A program made the translations under genes and the position numbers. The notes beneath the pieces were generated by a model. It was given only the letters and a program-made list of their open reading frames with translations, did no database searches and was not told where the DNA came from. A DNA stretch of 64,000 nt from Candidatus Omnitrophota bacterium (GTDB lineage Bacteria; Omnitrophota; Gorgyraeia; Duberdicusellales; 4484-171): contig PMCS01000008.1 of NCBI GenBank assembly GCA_003154195.1, positions 143,366 to 207,365 of the forward strand. Direction: 5' to 3'. How positions within the stretch are numbered: position 1 is the first letter of the stretch; every line of letters starts with the position of its first letter. Below, piece by piece: positions 27,519 through 39,115 of this stretch.

Positions 27519-29330
27519 TCAGGCGCGAAATTGCATTTCGTGCAGTTTTTTGTACAAGGTATCGCCGGATAGAAGCAAAGCATGGCTGCCCGCCTCGACA
27601 ATCCGCCCTTTATCCAAAACTAATATCTTATCCGCCTTCTGAACCGTAGACAGCCGGTGAGCAATAATAAATGCCGTACGGTTGCCGGCTAAAAGATTAT
27701 AAAAAGCCTCCTGCACTACCTTTTCCGATTTAGAATCAAGGCTGCTGGTCGCTTCATCGAGGATAAGAATCGGCGCGTCCTTTAAAATAGCTCTCGCGAT
27801 CGCAACCCGCTGGCGTTCCCCGCCGGATAACCGGAAACCCCGGTCACCGATCACGGTATCAAACCCTCTAGGAAGTTTTTCGATAAAATCGTAGGCATAA
27901 GCCTTTTTCGCCGCTTCAATGATTTCCGCTTCGCTCGCGCCTTCTCTGCCATAGCCGATATTATCGCGGACGGTCGAATTGAACAGGACCATTTCCTGCG
28001 AAACAACCGCGATCATCGACCTTAAAGGTTTCAGCTTAAATTCTTTGGTATCGACGCCGTCGATTAATATTCTGCCCCTCTGGGGGTCGTAAAGCCGGGG
28101 CAATAACCCCACCAGAGACGTCTTACCGGCGCCGGAGTAACCGACGATGGCAATCGTTTCTCCCCTTTTGACCTCAAGGTTGATCTCGGATAAAACATAA
28201 TCCGAATCATATTTAAACCAGACATTCTCGAAAGTGATCTTTTCTTTAAATTCTCTTATATCTTTAGCGTTGCCCATTTCCTTAATCCGCGGCTCTTCGT
28301 TAAGAATATCATAAATCCGGTTGGAAGCGGCAATCGCCTGCTGATTTATCACATGCGCCGCCGAAAGCTTCTTAAACGGTTTCATCATCTGCAAAAGCGC
28401 AGCCATATATACCGCGAAAAAACCAAATGACATCACCCCGCTGATCACATCTTTTCCCACGATCCAGAGAATCGCGATGGCGCCGATCGAGCCGGCAAAT
28501 TCCGTGAACGGCGTTAGAAAAGTCATCCGCTTAACACTACTTAAGTTAAATTTATAATAATGATAATTGATATCCTTGAACCGTTTCAGCTCATAATCCT
28601 CGCGGCAAAAGACCTTGACGATATAAGCCCCCTGTATCGTTTCGGCCAGTAAGGTATTCAAATCCGCCATCTTTTCCTGCGTCGCGCGGCTTAACTTTTT
28701 GACGCGTTTGCCGATGCTGACTACCGGCCAGATAAAAAAAGGGGCGGTGCCCAGGGCGATTAATGTAAGGTCCCAGCGTAAATACAGCGTCATAAAAGTA
28801 AAAACGACAAGCTGCATCGAATGTAAAATAACGTCGCTAAGACCGAAAGAAATCGCGTTGGCGATAAAACCGACATCGGTAGTGATGCGCGAAATAAGTT
28901 CGCCGGCGCGTTTTTTAGAATAAAAATCCAACGATAAATCCTGCAATTTAGCATAAAGCCGGTCCTTGACTTCGCGCATCGCGGCTTGCGCCACGACATT
29001 CATCAGGTAGGACTGGAAAAAGAAAAATACCCCCTTAACGATAATCAATGTCGGGATGACGATAAGCATCCCTTTTAAGATAACCAGGGGCGGCAAACTG
29101 TTAAGCTTAGCGACGAAACCCGAGAGAAACGGCGGAAGCCCCCGCGGCGCGATAATTTTACCGGGGGTCAATACCCGATCGAGAATAGGCACGAGCATGC
29201 CTAAACTCACGCCGTCAAAAATAGTGGAAATGGCCATAAAAATAGAGGCTAAAACCAGATTGGCCTTTTGCGGCGTGACAAATTTAAGCAGTTTAAAATA
29301 ATCTTTGAGATATTTTGTGGTTTTGCTCAT
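27519..29330 (-). CDS. msbA: ABC transporter permease/ATPase fusion, MsbA-like lipid exporter
   Basis: 603 aa; six TM helices, then Walker A GYSGAGKTS, signature LSGGERQRVAIARA and Walker B ILILDEATSSLD. Confidence 0.8.
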   Translation of the reverse strand: MSKTTKYLKDYFKLLKFVTPQKANLVLASIFMAISTIFDGVSLGMLVPILDRVLTPGKIIAPRGLPPFLSGFVAKLNSLPPLVILKGMLIVIPTLIIVKGVFFFFQSYLMNVVAQAAMREVKDRLYAKLQDLSLDFYSKKRAGELISRITTDVGFIANAISFGLSDVILHSMQLVVFTFMTLYLRWDLTLIALGTAPFFIWPVVSIGKRVKKLSRATQEKMADLNTLLAETIQGAYIVKVFCREDYELKRFKDINYHYYKFNLSSVKRMTFLTPFTEFAGSIGAIAILWIVGKDVISGVMSFGFFAVYMAALLQMMKPFKKLSAAHVINQQAIAASNRIYDILNEEPRIKEMGNAKDIREFKEKITFENVWFKYDSDYVLSEINLEVKRGETIAIVGYSGAGKTSLVGLLPRLYDPQRGRILIDGVDTKEFKLKPLRSMIAVVSQEMVLFNSTVRDNIGYGREGASEAEIIEAAKKAYAYDFIEKLPRGFDTVIGDRGFRLSGGERQRVAIARAILKDAPILILDEATSSLDSKSEKVVQEAFYNLLAGNRTAFIIAHRLSTVQKADKILVLDKGRIVEAGSHALLLSGDTLYKKLHEMQFRA

Positions 29331-30795: not shown

Positions 30796-31890
30796 ATGAA
30801 AAAAATCATCATCGTTGCCGGCGATAAATCCGGCGATCTCTACGGCGGATTTCTCGGCCAAAAACTGTCCGAGAAATCCGATGAGATAGAAATTTACTCC
30901 TTTGGTGGAGAAAAACTGGCGGCACACTCAAAACAGCTCATTAACCTTTTAGAGCACTCCGTCACCGGCCTCGTCGAAGTCTTATTCTCTTTAAAAAAAA
31001 TCATCGCTACCTTCAACCAAATTATTACCAAAATCCACGAAATAAAACCTGATTTGATTATTCTCATCGATTTTCCCGATTTTAACCTGCGGCTGGCGAA
31101 AAAACTGAACAAAAAATACCCACTTTTTTATTACGTCAGTCCGCAAGTCTGGGCCTGGCGCAAAGAGCGCGTTAAAGAAATAAAAAAATACGTGGATAAA
31201 ATGGTAGTGATCTTTAATTTCGAAAAAGACTTCTACCAAAAAGAAGGCGTGGACGCGCTGTATTTCGGCCACCCGCTTCTGGAAATCGTTAAAAAAACCA
31301 ATCCCTCCACGCAAAAAATCATAACTCTGATGCCCGGCTCGCGGCGCAACGAAATAAAAAAGCACTTACCCGTAATGCTTGCGGCGGCAAAAATTATCAA
31401 ACAAGCCTTGCCCGATTATAATTTCCGAATTATCCGCCCGCCGAATATCAACAAAATGTTCTACAAAGATCTATTGTCGGGTATGGATATAGTAGATATA
31501 GAAATTAAAGACCATTCCTACCAGGCAATCGAAGAATCGGCGTTTGTCATCGCTTCCAGCGGCACAACTACAGTAGAGCTGGCGATATTAGAAGTCCCCT
31601 TTATCCTGATGTATAAAGTCAATAGCTTAAGCTGGTTTTTAGTCCAGCGATTGGTTAACGTAAAATTCGCCGGAATGGTAAATATTCTGGCGGGAAGAAA
31701 AATCATCGAGGAATTTTTGCAGGATCAAGCAAGCGCGGAAAATTTAGCTAAAGCGGCAATCGAAGTTATGAAAACAAAAGAAAAATACAATCAGATAAAA
31801 ACCGACCTCAAAAATATCAAGACAATCCTCTCTCCTGAAGGCGCCACGGACAGCTTCGCAAGATACATAGAATCATTTCTGAAAAAATAA
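30796..31890 (+). CDS. lpxB: lipid-A-disaccharide synthase
   Basis: 364 aa; KIIIVAGDKSGDLYGGFL...YYVSPQVWAWR...SGTTTVELAI, the LpxB hallmark motifs. Confidence 0.85.
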   Translation: MKKIIIVAGDKSGDLYGGFLGQKLSEKSDEIEIYSFGGEKLAAHSKQLINLLEHSVTGLVEVLFSLKKIIATFNQIITKIHEIKPDLIILIDFPDFNLRLAKKLNKKYPLFYYVSPQVWAWRKERVKEIKKYVDKMVVIFNFEKDFYQKEGVDALYFGHPLLEIVKKTNPSTQKIITLMPGSRRNEIKKHLPVMLAAAKIIKQALPDYNFRIIRPPNINKMFYKDLLSGMDIVDIEIKDHSYQAIEESAFVIASSGTTTVELAILEVPFILMYKVNSLSWFLVQRLVNVKFAGMVNILAGRKIIEEFLQDQASAENLAKAAIEVMKTKEKYNQIKTDLKNIKTILSPEGATDSFARYIESFLKK

Positions 31891-31904: not shown

Positions 31905-31998
31905 GTGTCCACAGATTGCTCAGATTTTACAGATTAACTTTTAATTCTATACTGCCTAATCCATATTTTCTGATAAATCAGCGAAATCTGTGGACAAG
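31905..31998. repeat. family C intergenic element (CAGATT arrays with TGTCCACAGATT / AATCTGTGGACA termini), copy 1
   Basis: gtgtccacagattgctcagattttacagatt ... tcagcgaaatctgtggacaagac followed by tttttgtttttaa. Lies between the convergent lpxB and giant-gene 3' ends. Confidence 0.65.
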
Positions 31999-32018: not shown

Positions 32019-35000
32019 TTACTTCCACGCTTTTGCCGCCAATTCATCTATAGTTTCTTTCGCCGAGACATCTTTCATAAACGTAATCACAAATTGCAAG
32101 CGGTTAAAATGCGGGTTGAGACGGCTATCGGCCAGAGCTGCGTCCATGCCGGGGCCGCTGGTTTGAAGATTAAAGCTCTTGCCGGTGACGTCGATACCGC
32201 CCAAGGGCGTTGAGCCGGTCCCCTCCGGGGAGGCTCCGCTTCGCTCCGCGCTTGAGCCCGTTGAAGAAAGCGGCGAGGCGGCGGATTGTCTTTCTGCTTT
32301 TCCCCCCAGAGGTGAAGCGGCGGCTCTTCTTTCTTCTTCCCTCACCCCCTCTCCTTTGACATCTAACAGGACAAACTTATCCGACATATCCATACTGTTA
32401 TATTTATCTGGACCGAACCCAATATCGGTAAATGTCTGCCAGCTATCCCTGTGCAACGGTACAACGCTGATAGTCTTACCTTGCTGGTAAACTGTCATTT
32501 TAGGAATAGTTATTTCATTAGAGAAATTAAACGACCCTCCAATTTCCGCCGGCAAAGCGATACCGATACAATCGAGTTTTCGCGCGGTAACAGATAGTCC
32601 CCTGAATACATTCATTAATAATTTTCCGCCGTCAAGAGAAGGAGAATTAAGCGTATCTATGGTCAGGACTCTTTCGCCTTTATCGGTCACGCCAACCATC
32701 AACCCGATATATCCTTTAAGTTCTTTTCCTTTATAAACAAAATAGTATTGCGTATCTTCATGCATTGTCCGGGTAAACGGAAATCCCTTATCCGTATCCA
32801 TAAAGAAAGAACAATCGATCATCCCGGCCCGGCCGCGGAAGGCCGCCAAAAATCCCTGGCCGACAAAACGATAGTTGGTATTTCCCGCACGCTGGACGGA
32901 TACTAACGCCGGCCGGGATAAATCTTCCAGCAACTTGCTCACCGCCTTAATCTTCTCCGCCTTTATCCCCAAAGAATCAGGTAAGTGCTTTTTGTAACCT
33001 TCGAAGTTTATAAGTGCGGCGGTGAGCCGCTCAATATCGGTTGAATCAAGATCACTGGCCAATGCTTCATCGGATAAAACATCGGCGACGATTAAATCTC
33101 GCATCAACCCAAAGCAGGCTGCTTCGATTACATTATCCCCGCGGTTGCCTCTGGCCAATTTTTCAGCCAAAAGAAATACAGTCTTATAAAATTCCTTCCG
33201 GTTATCCCTGAAATACTGTTCCATATCGTCTGTGGAAGGATATTCAATATGGAAGCGTCCACCGCCTAGCAGCCTTCCTTCGGTAACAGCTTTACGACGC
33301 TGCATCTCATAATAGATCCCTTTAACACTGGAAAATTTATGCCCCGGGCCGAATACTTTTGCGATCAGGCTCAAATCGTCTATGCCTTTTTTTATCTCCC
33401 TTAACTGCCGGGCATGTTCATCGATCACCACGGAATTGACGGAAGTGGCGTCAAGCACAGTAACCCCTTCTTCGCTTACCTCAAAACCAGGCAGCGCCCG
33501 TTTCTTAGCAAACATCTTCTGCCAACTGCCGGGATACTTGGCGTCGTATTCCTTAAATTTAGCCAAGCGCTCTTTTAATTCGTCAAGGGTCATATTGATG
33601 CCCGCGACTCTTATCCCGGCATAAGCATACCAAACCGACGCCTCGTCGTCGTAGTTGAAACCGGCGTCATCGTCAACCGCCGCCGCGGCATCACGCATAA
33701 TTTCCTCTAAGGCAGCGCGGGAATCTTCTTCGGTTAAATACCACTCCACGACTTTTGGCTCATATGGTAAATTGCTCTTGCTCCACAATTTATATTTTTT
33801 ATAATCCTCACCAGCGTTCATCCCTTGTCGGGCCAGCTCATCGCTATAGACTAAGACTAAAGCTTGGGCTGCAGCCTGGACTACATCATGATTTCCATTA
33901 ACAACGCTCCTTAAGGCATCACGGGTGGCTTCTTTTTCCTGCTGGTCCATCCCGGCGTAAGCCAAACCCAAGGCTTTGGCCGCGGCCAGGCATACCGCCC
34001 AATCTTCGGCGGCGGCGGTAAGTCGGCTTCTTAATTCATCCAGCGACATATTATTCTGCCGAAACATCGCGGCATAAATCAAGCCTAACGCGTTGGCTCC
34101 AACTCGACACAAATCAAGCTCCGCATAGGTAAGCGTGCTTTTTAAAGCCTCGGCTATCCCCTTTGCTATACCCGGTTGTCGGACCAGTTCGCTGCCGACC
34201 AGGCCTAAAGCCTGGGCCGCGGCCTTGATTACGTCCCAATTCGGGTCATTAAGTTTGCTTTTAAAAATTTCTACTATCTCCGGAGAGACTTCTTCTCCCT
34301 GTCGGGCTAATACGGTATAGATCAAGCCTAAAGCTTCGACTACGGCCAAGCGCACCCACCCATCTTCGTCGCTGAGCTTACTTTTAAAAGCCTCTACTAT
34401 CTCCGGGGGGACTTTTTTTGCATGCCGCGCCAATTCACTGCAGACGGTGCCTAATATTTGGGCCGCGACACGCGACATACCAGAATCCTGATCGGTGAGT
34501 TTCTCCCTAAAGTAACCTATTTCCCGGAGCAGAAAAGCTTCTTCTTCCGGTTGTCCAGCCATTTCAGTATAGAATATACCTAAAGCTTTGACCGCGGCCT
34601 GGCTTACGGGATCAAACCTGTCAGTAAGCTGAATTTTTAAAGCCTCTACTATCTCCGGGGGAACTTTTTCTGCCCTTCGTGCCAGCGCGGCACAGGCCAT
34701 GCCTAAAGCTCCAACCATAGCCTGGCGTACAACCCAATTTCTTTCGACATCAAGTGCGTCTTTTAATTCAGTTAAGTCTGCTCTTTTTCCATTTCGGGCT
34801 AACGCGGTGTAGATTGCGCCTAAAACTTGGGCTGCGTCTCGGCGTATGCTATAATTCGAATCGCTCAAATCGCTAAGCTTGCTTTTTATCTCTGAGGCCA
34901 GGAAGGCTTCTCTCCCCGGTTGTCCAGCCAGTTCGGTGTAGACCAAGCATAAAGCATCAATCAAAGCCAGGCGCATGTCCGCATTCATTTCACCAACAAG

Positions 35001-38000
35001 CAGGCCTTTAAAAGCCTCTATCTCTCGGAAGATTTCTTTTCCCTTTCGCGCCATCTCAGTATAGACCAAACCTAAAGCTTTAATCGCATTTTGGCGTGTT
35101 TTAGGAGACTCAACGGAGCTGTAAACGGAGGTGTATTTACGTTGTAAATCAGTTAAGTCGACTTCTTTTCCCTGTCGGACCATCTCACTGTAAATCAGCC
35201 CCAAAGATTCAATCGCGGCCTGGCGTACGTTATCATCCCAATCGTTAAGTCTGTTTTTTAAAAGAGTTAAGTTGACTTCTTCTCCCCTACGAATCAGTTC
35301 GCTGTAGAATAAACCTAAAGCTTGAGCCGCGGCCTTGCGTATATACCAATTCTTGTCGTGAAGATCGCCTTCTATGGACAGCATGGATCGAACCGCTCGC
35401 TGGGAAAGAGTCAGGGGTTTATCGCTCTTAGGCAGAGTAAAAGTCCGGACCGGCGAAGCGGCGGATGAACTCTCTGCTTTTTTTCCGAGGGGCGCGACAT
35501 CCCTGGCGACCGCACATCTACCATGTGTTATATCATGGCCGTTGAACCGGTTAACATCTCTTAAATCGACACGGGGTTGGTTGGAGAACATCCTTTTATA
35601 AAAATCGAGAATATCGGGATTGTTGCTTCCCAATCCCGGATCTGACTCATCTCTCATGGGAACGAGTACTTTTGTCGCGCCGAGGGAACGGGCGATTTTC
35701 TCTTCGTAATCCAAAACCTGCCTCATCAAATCTTCGGTGACAATGCTTTCCGTAACTTCCTTGCGCGGGCTGAAGCCACGGTCGATAAGGACAGGCTCGT
35801 TGGTCCCGGCAATGGCATTACCAATAATAAGAAGAGTACCGCCTAAAAGGTCGTTAGTATCGGCATCGACAAGCACCAAGGCCACCATGTTATCGTTGTC
35901 TTCCATGGTATGATTTGTGCGCGTCCAACATTCGTCACTAAAATAGCCGATAAATTCGGCAAGCCAGCCCCTGGTGGGAACGATTTTTATCCTCCGGGTA
36001 AAACCGCCTGCCTTTATGCGTTCGCTCTCGTCTCTTAAGGCCTTGGCATCGATCGGCTTAAACAGGGCCCGGGCTCTTTGTTGATCATTGGAAATACCTT
36101 CCGAAGGAAAACCATCGACGAGTTCAATTAATTTAGAGATAGTCTCATGGGTCAACTCCTTGCCGCGACGGCCTCTAAAATATTCCAACAACTTTGACAA
36201 GCCGGTGTTATGATAAAAAGCGTAGGTAAGTAGTAACCTCCTGACCACCGGCCTAGTCGTTTTAACAGAGTTTATCGTTGTTATTGTCTCGATGGTTAAA
36301 TTCAATAAAGGAAATTGCCCCTTGGGCGCGGCTTCAAGCTCTGACCTGGCTGATCTTAACAATCTCAGTTTTCTTTCTACATCCGCTATCTTTCTCGCCT
36401 CCGTAGCTTCACTAGGCGTATGCGATAACTTCTCGACTTCCTTATCAATCAGAGAGAATAAATCCAGAATCGTAGCGTCATAGGGCGATTTATCTTCTCC
36501 CGCCACGGCGATAGCATCAATCGCGCCTTCAACCGCCTCAACCATTCCTTTACCATAGCTTGCCGCGTCAGCCCCAAGGCCCTGTTGTTTACCGGTAGAG
36601 ACTACGATTGATTCTTCCAACAAGGGGAAACCTTTTGGTAAAGCGGCCATATCTTTATCTTCTTCCTTCTTTTTTTTCTCGTAAGCCTTTTTATAATAAC
36701 CATAAATCGCGTCAAACGGTTCAACCCCATCCTCTCCCCTATGCAGGCTGGTATCGTAATGGACGATATGACGCAATAAAGCATTGACTTCGGGGTCGGA
36801 AATATTTAAATCACCCGGCAAGACAGCGTCAAAGAGATGGCCGAAAATTTTACGGTGTAGCTCACCTTTAATGAATACGCTGTTTTGTCCGCTCGGCTCT
36901 GTCCTTGGCTCTACTGCCGGCGAGGCGACAACTCTTTCTTTTCGTCCCGCGTCCGAGTGACCGGAGGGAACGGACGTCCTACGTCCTACGGATAGCTTTG
37001 CGTTTTGCCCTGTTGCCGGCGACCCGGCTCGCCCCGAAACAATAACCTCACTGCTGATTACTTTTACACCATGGCCTTCACAGATATCGGCTATCGTAAA
37101 CCTGGGAGGAAGGTTTGGCCTAACTTCCAGATTAAAAGCCTTTGGGGTAAAAATTGTTCCGCCCGAAGTATACCGACGCCGCACCGGATGCTTGGTAGCG
37201 CTATCCTGCTCCCGCTTGATACAGTTATAGACACCTCCCTTGTAAGCCTGGACATAAAGGTTAAAGATTTTATCTTTTACGTTCTTGTCGTTTAAATCAA
37301 TCCCGGCGATCTTACTCTGGTCGATGTAGTATTTATAGAAGGTATTTTGGAATTTCTTGCGGAACCAGACGGCTAAGATAAGGGAGTGGTAGATTTGGCG
37401 AAGGGTCGCAAAGCTCTTTCCCTGGTTGACTTCTTGGTTGACTTGAGGCAGAATTACTTCTTTGAATACATTTGAAGCGATCTCATCAGCTTTTTCTTTT
37501 TCATCCTTCATCCTTCGTCCTTCATCCTTCGATTGACCGCGCTGCGCCGCAGTGTAATCGCGCTCATGCATCGTCTTCAGGCTGGCTTCCAGGACAAACG
37601 CCGTATCCCCTTTCTCATAAACCACGCTCTTCTGGGGCATGACCCAGACTTTGTTGTAGGTGTTGATAGAACCGTTGATCCCGTTGAGCCGGTTTTGCCG
37701 GTTGAGCCCGTTAGAATTGGTTTTTGCGATAACCTCATTCCAATACCTTTTTCCCAATTCTGTTTCCGGATAAGTCAAAGAAGAAACGAGTTGCTTCAGG
37801 CAATAATCCTGCCCTAACAGGTCTTTACCGAGATCGGTCAGGGCTAAATTGTCTGAAGCGACTCGTTCCCCTTCATAAGGTGACAGGTTGACCCATAACT
37901 CTTCCTGGGGAAGAGTTAACCCTGCCAGAAAATACTTGATAAGACGATTAGCTTCTTCTTTGGTGACATCTTCTTTATTGGCGGTATCGACTAAGAATTC

Positions 38001-38306
38001 TATGTTGAGAGGGTTTTTAGGATTAAAACGTAAACCTTTAAGCACGGGATAAGAGAACTTTTCCGAAAGGTTGAGGAGTTTGGTCGGGGCTGGAAGGTTG
38101 TAGATCGCACCGGTAGGCTGGGGAGCCGGGGATACGGAAACGGCTTCCGCCATGATTTCCGGCGCGAATGAAGAAAAAAATATCGCGCCGGAAAGAAATA
38201 CAGCGGTGCACCTGAACAGAATAGTACTTCTGCGTATTGGGATTAGCTGGGTCATAACTAATCCAGAAAATACGTCCGGTAAAACGTATTTTCTGCTCCT
38301 TAGCAA
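32019..38306 (-). CDS. giant (2095 aa) exported or membrane-anchored protein with central HEAT/PBS-lyase-like repeat array and Ser/Ala-rich linkers
   Basis: Single uninterrupted ORF in the track. Hydrophobic N-terminal segment AVFLSGAIFFSSFAPEIMA. About 12 or more tandem repeats of the form D..VR.AA..ALG.(I/V)Y(S/T)E(L/M)AR.G..(V)...L. Low-complexity linkers GKKAESSSAASPV and GGKAERQSAASPLSSTGSSAERSGASPEGTGS. No recognisable catalytic motif. Confidence 0.7.
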   Translation of the reverse strand: MLRSRKYVLPDVFSGLVMTQLIPIRRSTILFRCTAVFLSGAIFFSSFAPEIMAEAVSVSPAPQPTGAIYNLPAPTKLLNLSEKFSYPVLKGLRFNPKNPLNIEFLVDTANKEDVTKEEANRLIKYFLAGLTLPQEELWVNLSPYEGERVASDNLALTDLGKDLLGQDYCLKQLVSSLTYPETELGKRYWNEVIAKTNSNGLNRQNRLNGINGSINTYNKVWVMPQKSVVYEKGDTAFVLEASLKTMHERDYTAAQRGQSKDEGRRMKDEKEKADEIASNVFKEVILPQVNQEVNQGKSFATLRQIYHSLILAVWFRKKFQNTFYKYYIDQSKIAGIDLNDKNVKDKIFNLYVQAYKGGVYNCIKREQDSATKHPVRRRYTSGGTIFTPKAFNLEVRPNLPPRFTIADICEGHGVKVISSEVIVSGRAGSPATGQNAKLSVGRRTSVPSGHSDAGRKERVVASPAVEPRTEPSGQNSVFIKGELHRKIFGHLFDAVLPGDLNISDPEVNALLRHIVHYDTSLHRGEDGVEPFDAIYGYYKKAYEKKKKEEDKDMAALPKGFPLLEESIVVSTGKQQGLGADAASYGKGMVEAVEGAIDAIAVAGEDKSPYDATILDLFSLIDKEVEKLSHTPSEATEARKIADVERKLRLLRSARSELEAAPKGQFPLLNLTIETITTINSVKTTRPVVRRLLLTYAFYHNTGLSKLLEYFRGRRGKELTHETISKLIELVDGFPSEGISNDQQRARALFKPIDAKALRDESERIKAGGFTRRIKIVPTRGWLAEFIGYFSDECWTRTNHTMEDNDNMVALVLVDADTNDLLGGTLLIIGNAIAGTNEPVLIDRGFSPRKEVTESIVTEDLMRQVLDYEEKIARSLGATKVLVPMRDESDPGLGSNNPDILDFYKRMFSNQPRVDLRDVNRFNGHDITHGRCAVARDVAPLGKKAESSSAASPVRTFTLPKSDKPLTLSQRAVRSMLSIEGDLHDKNWYIRKAAAQALGLFYSELIRRGEEVNLTLLKNRLNDWDDNVRQAAIESLGLIYSEMVRQGKEVDLTDLQRKYTSVYSSVESPKTRQNAIKALGLVYTEMARKGKEIFREIEAFKGLLVGEMNADMRLALIDALCLVYTELAGQPGREAFLASEIKSKLSDLSDSNYSIRRDAAQVLGAIYTALARNGKRADLTELKDALDVERNWVVRQAMVGALGMACAALARRAEKVPPEIVEALKIQLTDRFDPVSQAAVKALGIFYTEMAGQPEEEAFLLREIGYFREKLTDQDSGMSRVAAQILGTVCSELARHAKKVPPEIVEAFKSKLSDEDGWVRLAVVEALGLIYTVLARQGEEVSPEIVEIFKSKLNDPNWDVIKAAAQALGLVGSELVRQPGIAKGIAEALKSTLTYAELDLCRVGANALGLIYAAMFRQNNMSLDELRSRLTAAAEDWAVCLAAAKALGLAYAGMDQQEKEATRDALRSVVNGNHDVVQAAAQALVLVYSDELARQGMNAGEDYKKYKLWSKSNLPYEPKVVEWYLTEEDSRAALEEIMRDAAAAVDDDAGFNYDDEASVWYAYAGIRVAGINMTLDELKERLAKFKEYDAKYPGSWQKMFAKKRALPGFEVSEEGVTVLDATSVNSVVIDEHARQLREIKKGIDDLSLIAKVFGPGHKFSSVKGIYYEMQRRKAVTEGRLLGGGRFHIEYPSTDDMEQYFRDNRKEFYKTVFLLAEKLARGNRGDNVIEAACFGLMRDLIVADVLSDEALASDLDSTDIERLTAALINFEGYKKHLPDSLGIKAEKIKAVSKLLEDLSRPALVSVQRAGNTNYRFVGQGFLAAFRGRAGMIDCSFFMDTDKGFPFTRTMHEDTQYYFVYKGKELKGYIGLMVGVTDKGERVLTIDTLNSPSLDGGKLLMNVFRGLSVTARKLDCIGIALPAEIGGSFNFSNEITIPKMTVYQQGKTISVVPLHRDSWQTFTDIGFGPDKYNSMDMSDKFVLLDVKGEGVREEERRAAASPLGGKAERQSAASPLSSTGSSAERSGASPEGTGSTPLGGIDVTGKSFNLQTSGPGMDAALADSRLNPHFNRLQFVITFMKDVSAKETIDELAAKAWK

Positions 38307-38405
38307 CAGACAGGCATCGCCTGTCTCTACGCATTATATTTAACATATTTAATCGGGGAAAACCGGAAAAAGGGAGGGTTTTTGAGGGATTTTTGAAAAC
38401 GCTTT

Positions 38406-38668: not shown

Positions 38669-39115
38669 TCATACCGCGACTTTCACCACTACCTTACGCA
38701 CCGCGCCATTACCGGCGAGCGGGGCGTGAGCATCTTCGGGAAAAAATATGACGAATCTACCGGACGTAAGGGCGAACCAGGCCTGCGGCGTATCTTTTAA
38801 TATGCCGAAATCTTTTTTCTTATTATATTTCTGGTCCACGCTGAAGCAATCCGCCAACGACAACCAACCGATAACATCCACGCCGCTTACGCAGTATTGG
38901 ATATCGATGAATTTACGGTGAAATTCTAATTTAGAATCATCCTTCCCTCTTCCATTCGAAACCGCAACCGTGGCAAAAAGTTTTTTCCCGTTTAATTCAT
39001 ATTTGCCGTCTTTTAACTCGCGGGGGTTACTTTTACATAAAAAGGCAAACGCTTCCTTGAAGGCAGGATGCAAGGCGTAATAAATTTTAGCGTTTTCTAA
39101 GGTATCAATGATCAT
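38669..39115 (-). CDS. YhcH/YjgK/YiaL (DUF386, EbgC-like) family protein
   Basis: 148 aa; FHRKFIDIQYC...FFPEDAHAP...VRKVVVKV parallels the EbgC/YhcH beta-sandwich family motifs. Confidence 0.55.
   Translation of the reverse strand: MIIDTLENAKIYYALHPAFKEAFAFLCKSNPRELKDGKYELNGKKLFATVAVSNGRGKDDSKLEFHRKFIDIQYCVSGVDVIGWLSLADCFSVDQKYNKKKDFGILKDTPQAWFALTSGRFVIFFPEDAHAPLAGNGAVRKVVVKVAV

Follow-up and report, generated by a model that had tools for sequence, protein, structure and literature searches.

What is the 2,078-amino acid (aa) protein whose gene runs along the minus strand of a 64,000-nucleotide (nt) stretch of DNA from Candidatus Omnitrophota bacterium (assembly GCA_003154195.1, contig PMCS01000008.1, positions 143,366 to 207,365 of the forward strand), and what are the large flanks on either side of its central HEAT-repeat array made of? 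An earlier note, made from this whole stretch (hereafter the window, to which all coordinates refer), had described the HEAT core as lying between two large domains, 900 aa without a motif and a C-terminal region of ~700 aa. This division did not hold: each flank resolves into two modules, an N-module and a mid domain ahead of the array, and a C domain and a GGID tail behind it. The outermost of these are, by sequence comparison, the ends of a phylum-specific, multi-paralogue family in which signal peptide, N-module and GGID tail are fixed and the cargo between them is swappable, the HEAT array being just one possible cargo within it.

The N-module, ~320 aa directly after the signal peptide, has its core at aa 53–366 (LNLPxP...WVNLSPYE...LRQIY...RRYxSGG; 37158..38099, minus strand). 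In a search with the whole protein, 119 non-identical proteins among the matches listed align with the N-module only, at 36–64% identity, and all 119 carry it at their own N-terminus; across 120 N-module proteins it starts at aa 1–95 (median 40), and the longest protein that it heads measures 5,596 aa. The named relatives all belong to the Omnitrophota/Omnitrophica. When species genomes of GTDB were scanned for two peptide patterns of the N-module, tblastn confirmed at least 590 loci, several per metagenome-assembled genome (MAG); the number of Omnitrophota proteins that share the module, at 40–64% identity, runs from hundreds to over 1,000. Among the best 80 of these at least 590 loci, the record titles are nearly all those of Omnitrophota MAGs, some being auto-labelled Planctomycetales. 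One N-module locus, L020 (DYOU01000064.1, a 6.3-kb contig), belongs to a MAG that bears the label Candidatus Elulimicrobium (Patescibacteria group); either the binning or the label may be wrong, or the module may on rare occasion occur beyond the Omnitrophota.

An alignment of 34 N-modules (A3) retains 38 invariant positions, including WVNLS, LKQ, LRQ.Y and R.Y.SGG. None of the 34 sequences has a match in Pfam, nor is there an NCBIfam model; a profile search found no PDB sequence match at E≤10. The AlphaFold2 model, on the whole a confident one (predicted local distance difference test, pLDDT, 78; predicted TM-score, pTM, 0.81), is mixed alpha/beta, with two long beta-hairpins packed on long helices, and Foldseek returned no match to it at E≤1e-3 in all of PDB. 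Because no Foldseek match was significant, the module as modelled has no detectable structural relative in PDB, and we infer that it may represent a new fold. The top matches, none of them significant, were the ClyA-family toxins NheA, MakB, MakE and SmhB, aligned over nearly full length at E 0.03–2 with TM-scores of ~0.1; a ClyA-like alpha-pore former was considered on this ground and set aside, the structural similarity to PDB entries not being significant. Two side observations concern the module itself. The motif R.Y.SGG forms its constant end, and a variable loop accommodates low-complexity inserts in different proteins (P0002, P0044, P0062 and others), KDEGRRMKDEKEK in the present protein (aa ~243–252; 37500-37527) and VGARSPRPGRGNPAPT or EGSAERSGASLKGTEK elsewhere, EGSAERSGASLKGTEK resembling SSAERSGASPEGTGS of the third linker described below. 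Such inserts may have arisen in frame, by insertion or by expansion of short DNA repeats.

At the opposite end stands the GGID tail (aa 2019–2078; 32022..32201, minus strand). Its GGID, at aa 2019, lies 60 aa before the end and aligns with the tails of the family, which share GGID(L/F/V)...L.L...G.G...F.....(G)(F/L)xFxIxxI. In ~85 of the 120 N-module proteins GGID occurs just once, 42–107 residues ahead of the C-terminus. With a hidden Markov model (HMM) the tail is recovered in 102 of the 120, where a median of 4 residues follows it; the N-module proteins that lack a tail may be truncated at contig ends. The 2,078-aa protein thus carries both hallmarks of the family, a signal-like N-terminus with the N-module at one end and the GGID tail at the extreme C-terminus. 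What lies between these ends differs widely among members. By precomputed Pfam annotation their cargo includes glycolytic enzymes and the like (triose-phosphate isomerase, enolase, PGK, PPDK, phosphoglucomutase, PGI, iPGM and GAPDH) as well as protein kinases, UbiB, HATPase_c, methyltransferases, radical SAM, NUDIX, M48 and M3 peptidases, PP2C, DnaJ and HEAT. In ~12 of the 80 loci (L029, L046, L010, L044, L018, L049, L059, L056, L042, L075, L055 and L037) members form head-to-tail tandem arrays on the same strand, so that the GGID tail of one member is followed directly by the N-module gene of the next. No Pfam or NCBIfam model matches the tail in the 2,078-aa protein or in the further family members scanned, and the N-module, the C domain and the tail have no models in Pfam (2025) or NCBIfam (June 2026). 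Sorting and secretion models in these two collections (the type IX secretion system C-terminal domain, autotransporter barrel, two-partner secretion [TPS] domain, PEP-CTERM, LPXTG and others) likewise gave no match to N-module or tail in a scan that covered the 2,078-aa protein at E≤1, 34 N-modules, and 8 plus 3 further family members. Neither bookend is described in the accessible portions of the literature on Omnitrophota giant proteins.

Where the protein begins matters for whether it is seen as exported. The minus-strand open reading frame (ORF) at 32019-38306 has no interruption and comprises 2,095 codons when counted from a TTG; that it is a single uninterrupted frame, as the earlier note had stated, is confirmed by the ORF list, the translation and an identical protein in Joint Genome Institute (JGI) data, P0001, annotated there as ‘HEAT repeat protein’. 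The most upstream TTG was set aside as the start, since alignment with the closest relative, P0002 (64% identity across the first ~440 aa), points to the ATG at 38255. The N-terminus of P0002, MTQIIP, aligns with the MTQLIP encoded there, and because the two proteins share the start MTQ[LI]IP, and also because an AAGGAG lies upstream, this ATG is most likely the real start. The gene then extends over 32019..38255 (minus strand), from the ATG at 38255-38253 to the stop codon, and would encode 2,078 aa; residue numbers here count from this Met. The JGI call for P0001 begins instead at Met35 and yields 2,044 aa (from comparison with window positions 38153-38255), so that the signal peptide is missing from it. 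In the N-module family, automated calling of starts may conceal the export signal systematically.

The leader itself spans 38264..38301 (minus strand). The Shine-Dalgarno-like AAGGAG (38301-38296) stands 40 nt 5′ of the ATG, and the stretch between them is occupied by a stable 14-bp hairpin (38295-38264), a match in the terminator-like scan, with a folding energy of −19.9 kcal/mol (z = −3.35), which ends 8 nt short of the ATG. Folding of the hairpin would place the Shine-Dalgarno sequence ~8 nt from the start codon, and the element may be structural or regulatory in translation initiation. A short perfect palindrome, AGACAGGC-GAT-GCCTGTCT, is found just 5′ of the AAGGAG at 38303-38325 (minus strand), between a 15-bp hairpin farther upstream and the gene start.

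From this Met, the hydrophobic N-terminal anchor or signal noted earlier is readily recovered. The first 38 residues (38142..38255, minus strand; sequence inspection and Kyte-Doolittle scan) comprise R8/R9, an uncharged stretch at aa 10–32 and then A36-E37-A38|V39, and hence possess, by rule only, the positive n-region, hydrophobic h-region and AxA site of a Sec signal; this segment is the sole strongly hydrophobic 19-aa window of the whole protein (Kyte-Doolittle). The same pattern recurs across the family. In 99% of the 149 members whose N-termini are complete, K/R residues precede the hydrophobic stretch (median 3 K/R and 0 D/E ahead of it), the uncharged stretch measures 17–29 residues, and the N-module follows from ~aa 40. 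Many members have textbook short signal peptides with an AxA directly before the N-module (...ANA|QTLNLP, ...AFA|AEA). Because of this charge pattern and these AxA sites before LNLPxP, the family looks, by rule, to be exported by Sec or anchored with its N-terminus inside.

The central array is the part of the protein that is readily assigned to known families. About 13 HEAT units, whose spacing of 37–43 aa agrees with the tandem helix-turn-helix units of ~37–47 aa typical of HEAT proteins, form a solenoid at aa 962–1488 (33792..35372, minus strand), identified by Pfam matches, internal repeats and a repeat count: HEAT_2 (PF13646) scores 105.7 bits against a gathering cut-off of 27.7 (E=1.5e-30), HEAT (PF02985) 72.4 bits against 23.5 (E=9e-21), and tiled, masked self-BLAST reveals internal similarity down to E 2e-22. 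The claim of at least 12 central repeats therefore stands, and so does their central location; the proposed extent, 34100-35520, needs correction, since an array at nt 33792-35372 reaches ~300 nt further 3′. The label ‘PBS-lyase-like’ was dropped, as the array falls far under the curated NCBIfam equivalog cut-offs for CpcF (23.3 bits vs 220) and NblB (18 vs 300), and Pfam HEAT_PBS is not among the matches of the protein.

Immediately behind the solenoid lies the C domain (aa 1490–1966; 32358..33788, minus strand), an all-helical part of ~300 aa followed by a divergent Gcn5-related N-acetyltransferase (GNAT) fold (aa ~1789–1969; 32349-32891, minus strand). A profile search of 1.84 billion representatives gave 284 clusters that pass E≤1e-3, and of these 55 pass even E≤1e-30. 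The domain is often internal to proteins of 2–8 thousand amino acids (kaa), occurring inside proteins of 3,145–7,952 aa, one protein having two copies. Its AlphaFold2 model (pLDDT 86) places, after the ~300-aa helical part, the series beta-alpha-alpha-beta-beta-beta-alpha-beta-alpha-beta, which is the order of the GNAT fold (beta1-alpha1-alpha2-beta2-beta3-beta4-alpha3-beta5-alpha4-beta6), and the presence of a divergent GNAT fold is thus supported by the model. The resemblance is one of fold: compared with members of the GNAT superfamily such as NatD/Naa40 (PDB 4u9w), the C domain is only ~10% identical, and it differs from them in its fusion to ~300 aa of helical domain and in its predicted export. 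No Pfam family matches any of 25 C-domain members, and 0 of the 25 match a Pfam GNAT model at E≤1; profiles of the N-module, mid domain and C domain found no meaningful match among PDB sequences. The family has motifs of its own (FRGRAGxxDC, TRAMHEDT, DTxxSPSLDG, A.P......FNF.N, P.H..W, D..NS, and SFNFxN). At the position of the coenzyme A (CoA) pyrophosphate-binding motif, Q/RxxGxG/A after beta4, it has a conserved, non-canonical loop, DT(L/I)(N/Q)SPSLDG(G/E), and N...Y...G resembles motif B. The ‘GNAT’ annotation of P0124 was rejected as referring to the C domain, being a separate canonical GNAT further downstream. Of 35 occurrences of the C domain, 17 have HEAT repeats like those of the 2,078-aa protein immediately upstream, and these 17 include nearly all of the close relatives; the HEAT-to-C-domain pair is thus a conserved supermodule. 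This HEAT-to-GNAT-like arrangement is also embedded in Omnitrophota proteins of 1–8 kaa.

A second GNAT-like module probably precedes the solenoid. The mid domain (aa 466–920; 35496..36860, minus strand) consists of a helical part and a putative GNAT-like half (aa ~668–919) with the motifs TRGWLAEFIGYFSDECWT, IDRGxSPR, LGATKxLVP, GLGSNNPDI and FNGHDITxGxC. It has no Pfam match and is rare; homologues comprise only 3 from the database search and 9 metagenome loci, among them L086, in which the domain occurs within a ~3,135-aa reading frame headed by an N-module. Profile–profile alignment (hhalign) with the C domain gave E=0.012 (A1 vs A2), E=4.8e-4 over 191 columns (A4 vs A2) and, once the mid family had been enlarged to 13 sequences, E=7.4e-3 over 224 columns, the register staying unchanged. 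By eye, motifs of the mid and C domains are colinear: GWLAEFIGYFSDEC/GFLxxFRGRAGxxDC, LLGGTLL/LKGYxGL, VLIDRGxSP/VLTIDTxxSP, LGATKxLVP/LGCxGIALP and GSNNPDI/SFNFxNxxTI. The C-terminal ~250 aa of the mid domain are thus a probable GNAT-like paralogue of the C domain. As a separate observation, the mid domain is usually preceded by helical repeats of ~36 aa with the rough consensus P.QAGQIAIEAIKNNI.GIT.E.V.KWI.ECF (L082, L083, L085, L086 and L087; P0126 and P0127), a repeat scaffold ahead of a GNAT-like module that mirrors the HEAT-to-C-domain order.

The modules are joined by low-complexity linkers. Linker 1 (Ser/Pro/Gly/Arg; aa ~405–465; 36861..37043, minus strand), read from the translation, is the point where family similarity stops; linker 2 (GKKAESSSAASPV...; aa 921–950; 35406..35495, minus strand) was recognised by self-similarity and by DNA repeat family D8, and linker 3 (RRAAASPLGGKAERQSAASPLSSTGSSAERSGASPEGTGSTPL; aa 1970–2018; 32202..32348, minus strand) from the translation and its ASP-type motifs, of which it has three, (A/G)ASP(L/E). 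The Ser/Ala-rich linkers reported earlier at the domain junctions are borne out, as Ser/Ala/Pro linkers, aa 921–938 and aa 1981–1998 being 61% identical, and their DNA constitutes direct-repeat family D8, so that their relationship shows in the DNA as well as in the protein. Motifs of the form [AGS][AGS]SP[LVAE] lie at aa 410, 932, 1979, 1992 and 2007. Across the family, (A/S)(A/S)SP(L/V) occurs at module junctions and also 5–25 residues ahead of the GGID tail, perhaps as a cleavage site for a protease, perhaps as a low-complexity sequon of the O-glycosylation type.

How might such a protein work? On balance we lean, with modest confidence, toward a Sec-exported modular scaffold-enzyme of the envelope or extracellular space, a mid-size relative of the Archaeovorin giants. 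Sec would carry the chain over the inner membrane, its N-terminal helix being either cleaved at A-E-A|V or retained as an anchor. The N-module and tail would then perform a task that all family members share, in all likelihood one of localising, anchoring or assembling the protein at the envelope or cell surface. The HEAT solenoid would dock partner or target proteins and the GNAT-like modules would bind or acylate them. A similar pairing is found in N-terminal acetyltransferase complexes, in which helical-repeat auxiliary subunits present substrates to GNAT subunits. Several observations weigh against this scheme. The long uncharged stretch (~22 aa) fits cleavage and anchoring alike. The role assigned to the N-module and tail is drawn solely from their position and conservation, and no conserved partner gene stands beside family members: a search upstream of 80 family loci found none, the sole large cluster consisting of antisense shadow ORFs of the N-module. 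The GNAT-like domain has SPSLDGG where a recognisable Q/RxxGxG/A CoA motif would be expected and matches no GNAT HMM, and it may be a non-catalytic binding module; the homology between the mid and C domains is itself weak statistically (E 5e-4 to 7e-3). Above all, a GNAT, like most of the family's ATP-, CoA- or S-adenosylmethionine (SAM)-dependent cargo, is normally cytoplasmic, and catalysis outside the cell is hard to reconcile with this, a puzzle already raised for the Omnitrophota giants (10.1101/2023.11.21.568195; 10.64898/2026.06.07.730766).

Such domains make little sense outside the cytoplasm, and two rival explanations that would return them to one therefore stay alive. Might the protein be delivered rather than displayed? 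In an effector-delivery platform resembling MARTX or AB toxins, the N-module and GGID tail would form or engage a translocation device that takes the cargo through the outer membrane and into a prey or host cell, where the GNAT-like modules would use host acetyl-CoA and their siblings host ATP and glycolytic intermediates. This would account for cargo that is overwhelmingly of cytoplasmic type and yet sits behind Sec-type signals, and fixed termini around variable middles do recall MARTX toxins. The non-significant Foldseek matches of the N-module to ClyA-family pore-forming toxins (E 0.03–2) point the same way, and the phylum includes a predatory epibiont, Velamenicoccus archaeovorus, with host-dependent lifestyles inferred phylum-wide (PMC10066038). 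The two long beta-hairpins of the N-module, however, are amphipathic or charged and not hydrophobic, the 2,078-aa protein lacks an autoprocessing protease domain, and no secretion-system gene is consistently adjacent, so that we regard delivery, including the use of host metabolites, as improbable. Alternatively, does the chain never leave the cell? If the N-terminal helix were an inner-membrane anchor with the body in the cytoplasm, as a membrane-tethered metabolon or regulatory scaffold, the cofactors needed by the cargo would be at hand; the length of the hydrophobic stretch (17–29 uncharged residues) is compatible with an anchor, and a 2026 preprint argues in like manner for giants with transmembrane (TM) helices and no signal peptide (10.64898/2026.06.07.730766). 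Against a cytoplasmic body stand the positive charges that precede the hydrophobic stretch in 99% of members, no such charge being needed behind it, a pattern that predicts an N-in/C-out orientation by the positive-inside rule, and the many members with canonical short signal peptides and an AxA before the N-module. This topology, too, strikes us as rather unlikely.

An attachment role, as the earlier note had envisaged, would make the protein a surface adhesin whose HEAT solenoid and flanking modules bind cells or host without catalysis. It has the required export features, HEAT repeats are protein-binding scaffolds, and adhesion has been proposed for some Omnitrophota giant ORFs (PMC10066038). 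Yet our scans of the protein detected no adhesin-type domain (no Ig, cadherin, discoidin, dockerin or similar domain), its siblings carry enzymes rather than adhesion modules, and the conserved Cys, His, Asp, Arg and Asn of the GNAT-like halves suggest a defined pocket and not a stalk. We consider an adhesin very unlikely, and of the flanking ‘novel enzymatic or adhesive modules’ once proposed only the enzymatic half finds an echo, in the GNAT fold of the C domain and probably of the mid domain.

A scaffold-enzyme at the envelope invites comparison with the giants of the same phylum. Published accounts describe Omnitrophota giants that combine metabolic and regulatory domains with HEAT repeats, the repeats lying in regions predicted to be extracellular (10.1101/2023.11.21.568195; 10.64898/2026.06.07.730766). 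With the Archaeovorin giants the 2,078-aa protein has in common the phylum, low-complexity linkers, HEAT as the commonest scaffold, and cytoplasm-type enzymes behind export signals, the last on its side being a family-wide trait. It shares a module vocabulary (HEAT, C domain, N-module) with multi-kaa Omnitrophota proteins. The two preprints define giants by at least 30,000 aa (a gene of more than 90 kb; West-Roberts et al., 2023) or at least 10,000 aa, making the present protein 15 to 40 times smaller; they have many TM helices, whereas it has one N-terminal hydrophobic segment (Kyte-Doolittle), and, unlike them, it is devoid of C39/S8 peptidase, SecA-like, glycosyltransferase and glycoside hydrolase domains. 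In size and number of TM helices it therefore falls outside the group and is a relative of the Archaeovorin giants, not a member.

The bookends find partial parallels in other bacteria, three of which deserve mention. Cargo proteins of the type IX secretion system (T9SS) combine a Sec signal with a conserved C-terminal sorting domain on unrelated cargo, with many paralogues in one phylum; MARTX toxins have conserved terminal regions around interchangeable effector modules; and TpsA/CdiA proteins carry a conserved TPS domain of ~250–300 aa right after the signal peptide, where it is needed for export. The N-module/GGID family resembles the first in its Sec signal, conserved 60–100-aa C-terminal domain, unrelated cargo, many paralogues and confinement to a single phylum. 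It differs from T9SS cargo in the additional obligatory N-module of ~320 aa, and a neighbour search over the 80 loci identified no sortase-like or translocon partner. It resembles MARTX toxins in its conserved ends and interchangeable middle, but the 2,078-aa protein has neither glycine-rich RTX-type repeats nor the CPD protease. With TpsA/CdiA it shares a conserved domain directly behind the signal peptide, but the N-module is modelled as mixed alpha/beta and not as the beta-helix TPS fold, and no TpsB-like partner is adjacent. In a bolder proposal, which we hold to be doubtful, the N-module, itself a new fold, and the GGID tail would be the ends of an undescribed Omnitrophota system for export, display or translocation that moves cytoplasmic-type enzymes outward or into prey.

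The surroundings of the gene are of housekeeping or envelope type and include no secretion component. They comprise a GFO/IDH/MocA oxidoreductase, Dus, NUDIX and MnmG, as well as LpxB (30796-31890, plus strand), from which a diderm envelope containing lipid A may be surmised. An ABC exporter at 27519-29330 (minus strand) was considered as a dedicated C39-type transporter and rejected; it has no peptidase domain and adjoins lpxB, and for these reasons is read as probably MsbA-like, giving no support to dedicated export. The flanking elements listed in the earlier note were all found again: upstream, a perfect 15-bp hairpin (arms 38406-38420/38442-38456) and a YhcH/DUF386 gene (38669-39115), and at the 3′ end the family C repeat, here inverted repeats at 31906-31996 that end in ATCTGTGGACA. 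This 11-mer occurs in 9 copies in the window with at most one mismatch, where 0.36 are expected (24605, 31906/31986, 39335, 40370/40489, 56167/56382 and 61408), mostly as intergenic inverted pairs spaced 80–215 bp apart, and the set looks like a small element family of the miniature inverted-repeat transposable element (MITE) or repetitive extragenic palindromic (REP) kind.

What would these assignments mean for the Omnitrophota? These bacteria are uncultivated, ultra-small and often thought to be predators or parasites, and their huge multi-domain proteins are a recognised puzzle. The 2,078-aa protein is a further variant in this known, poorly understood class; its own function is inferred, and most of the interest comes from the family-level bookends and the unmatched fold of the N-module. 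If these were indeed the ends of a common system, its cargo would include most of lower glycolysis, kinases, and GNAT-like and HEAT modules, with the present gene as one variant. The HEAT-to-GNAT-like supermodule is reused inside the Omnitrophota giants, and at 2 kaa the gene offers a tractable entry point to the giant-protein puzzle. Definitions of three domains, the N-module, the C domain and the GGID tail, would improve annotation across the phylum.

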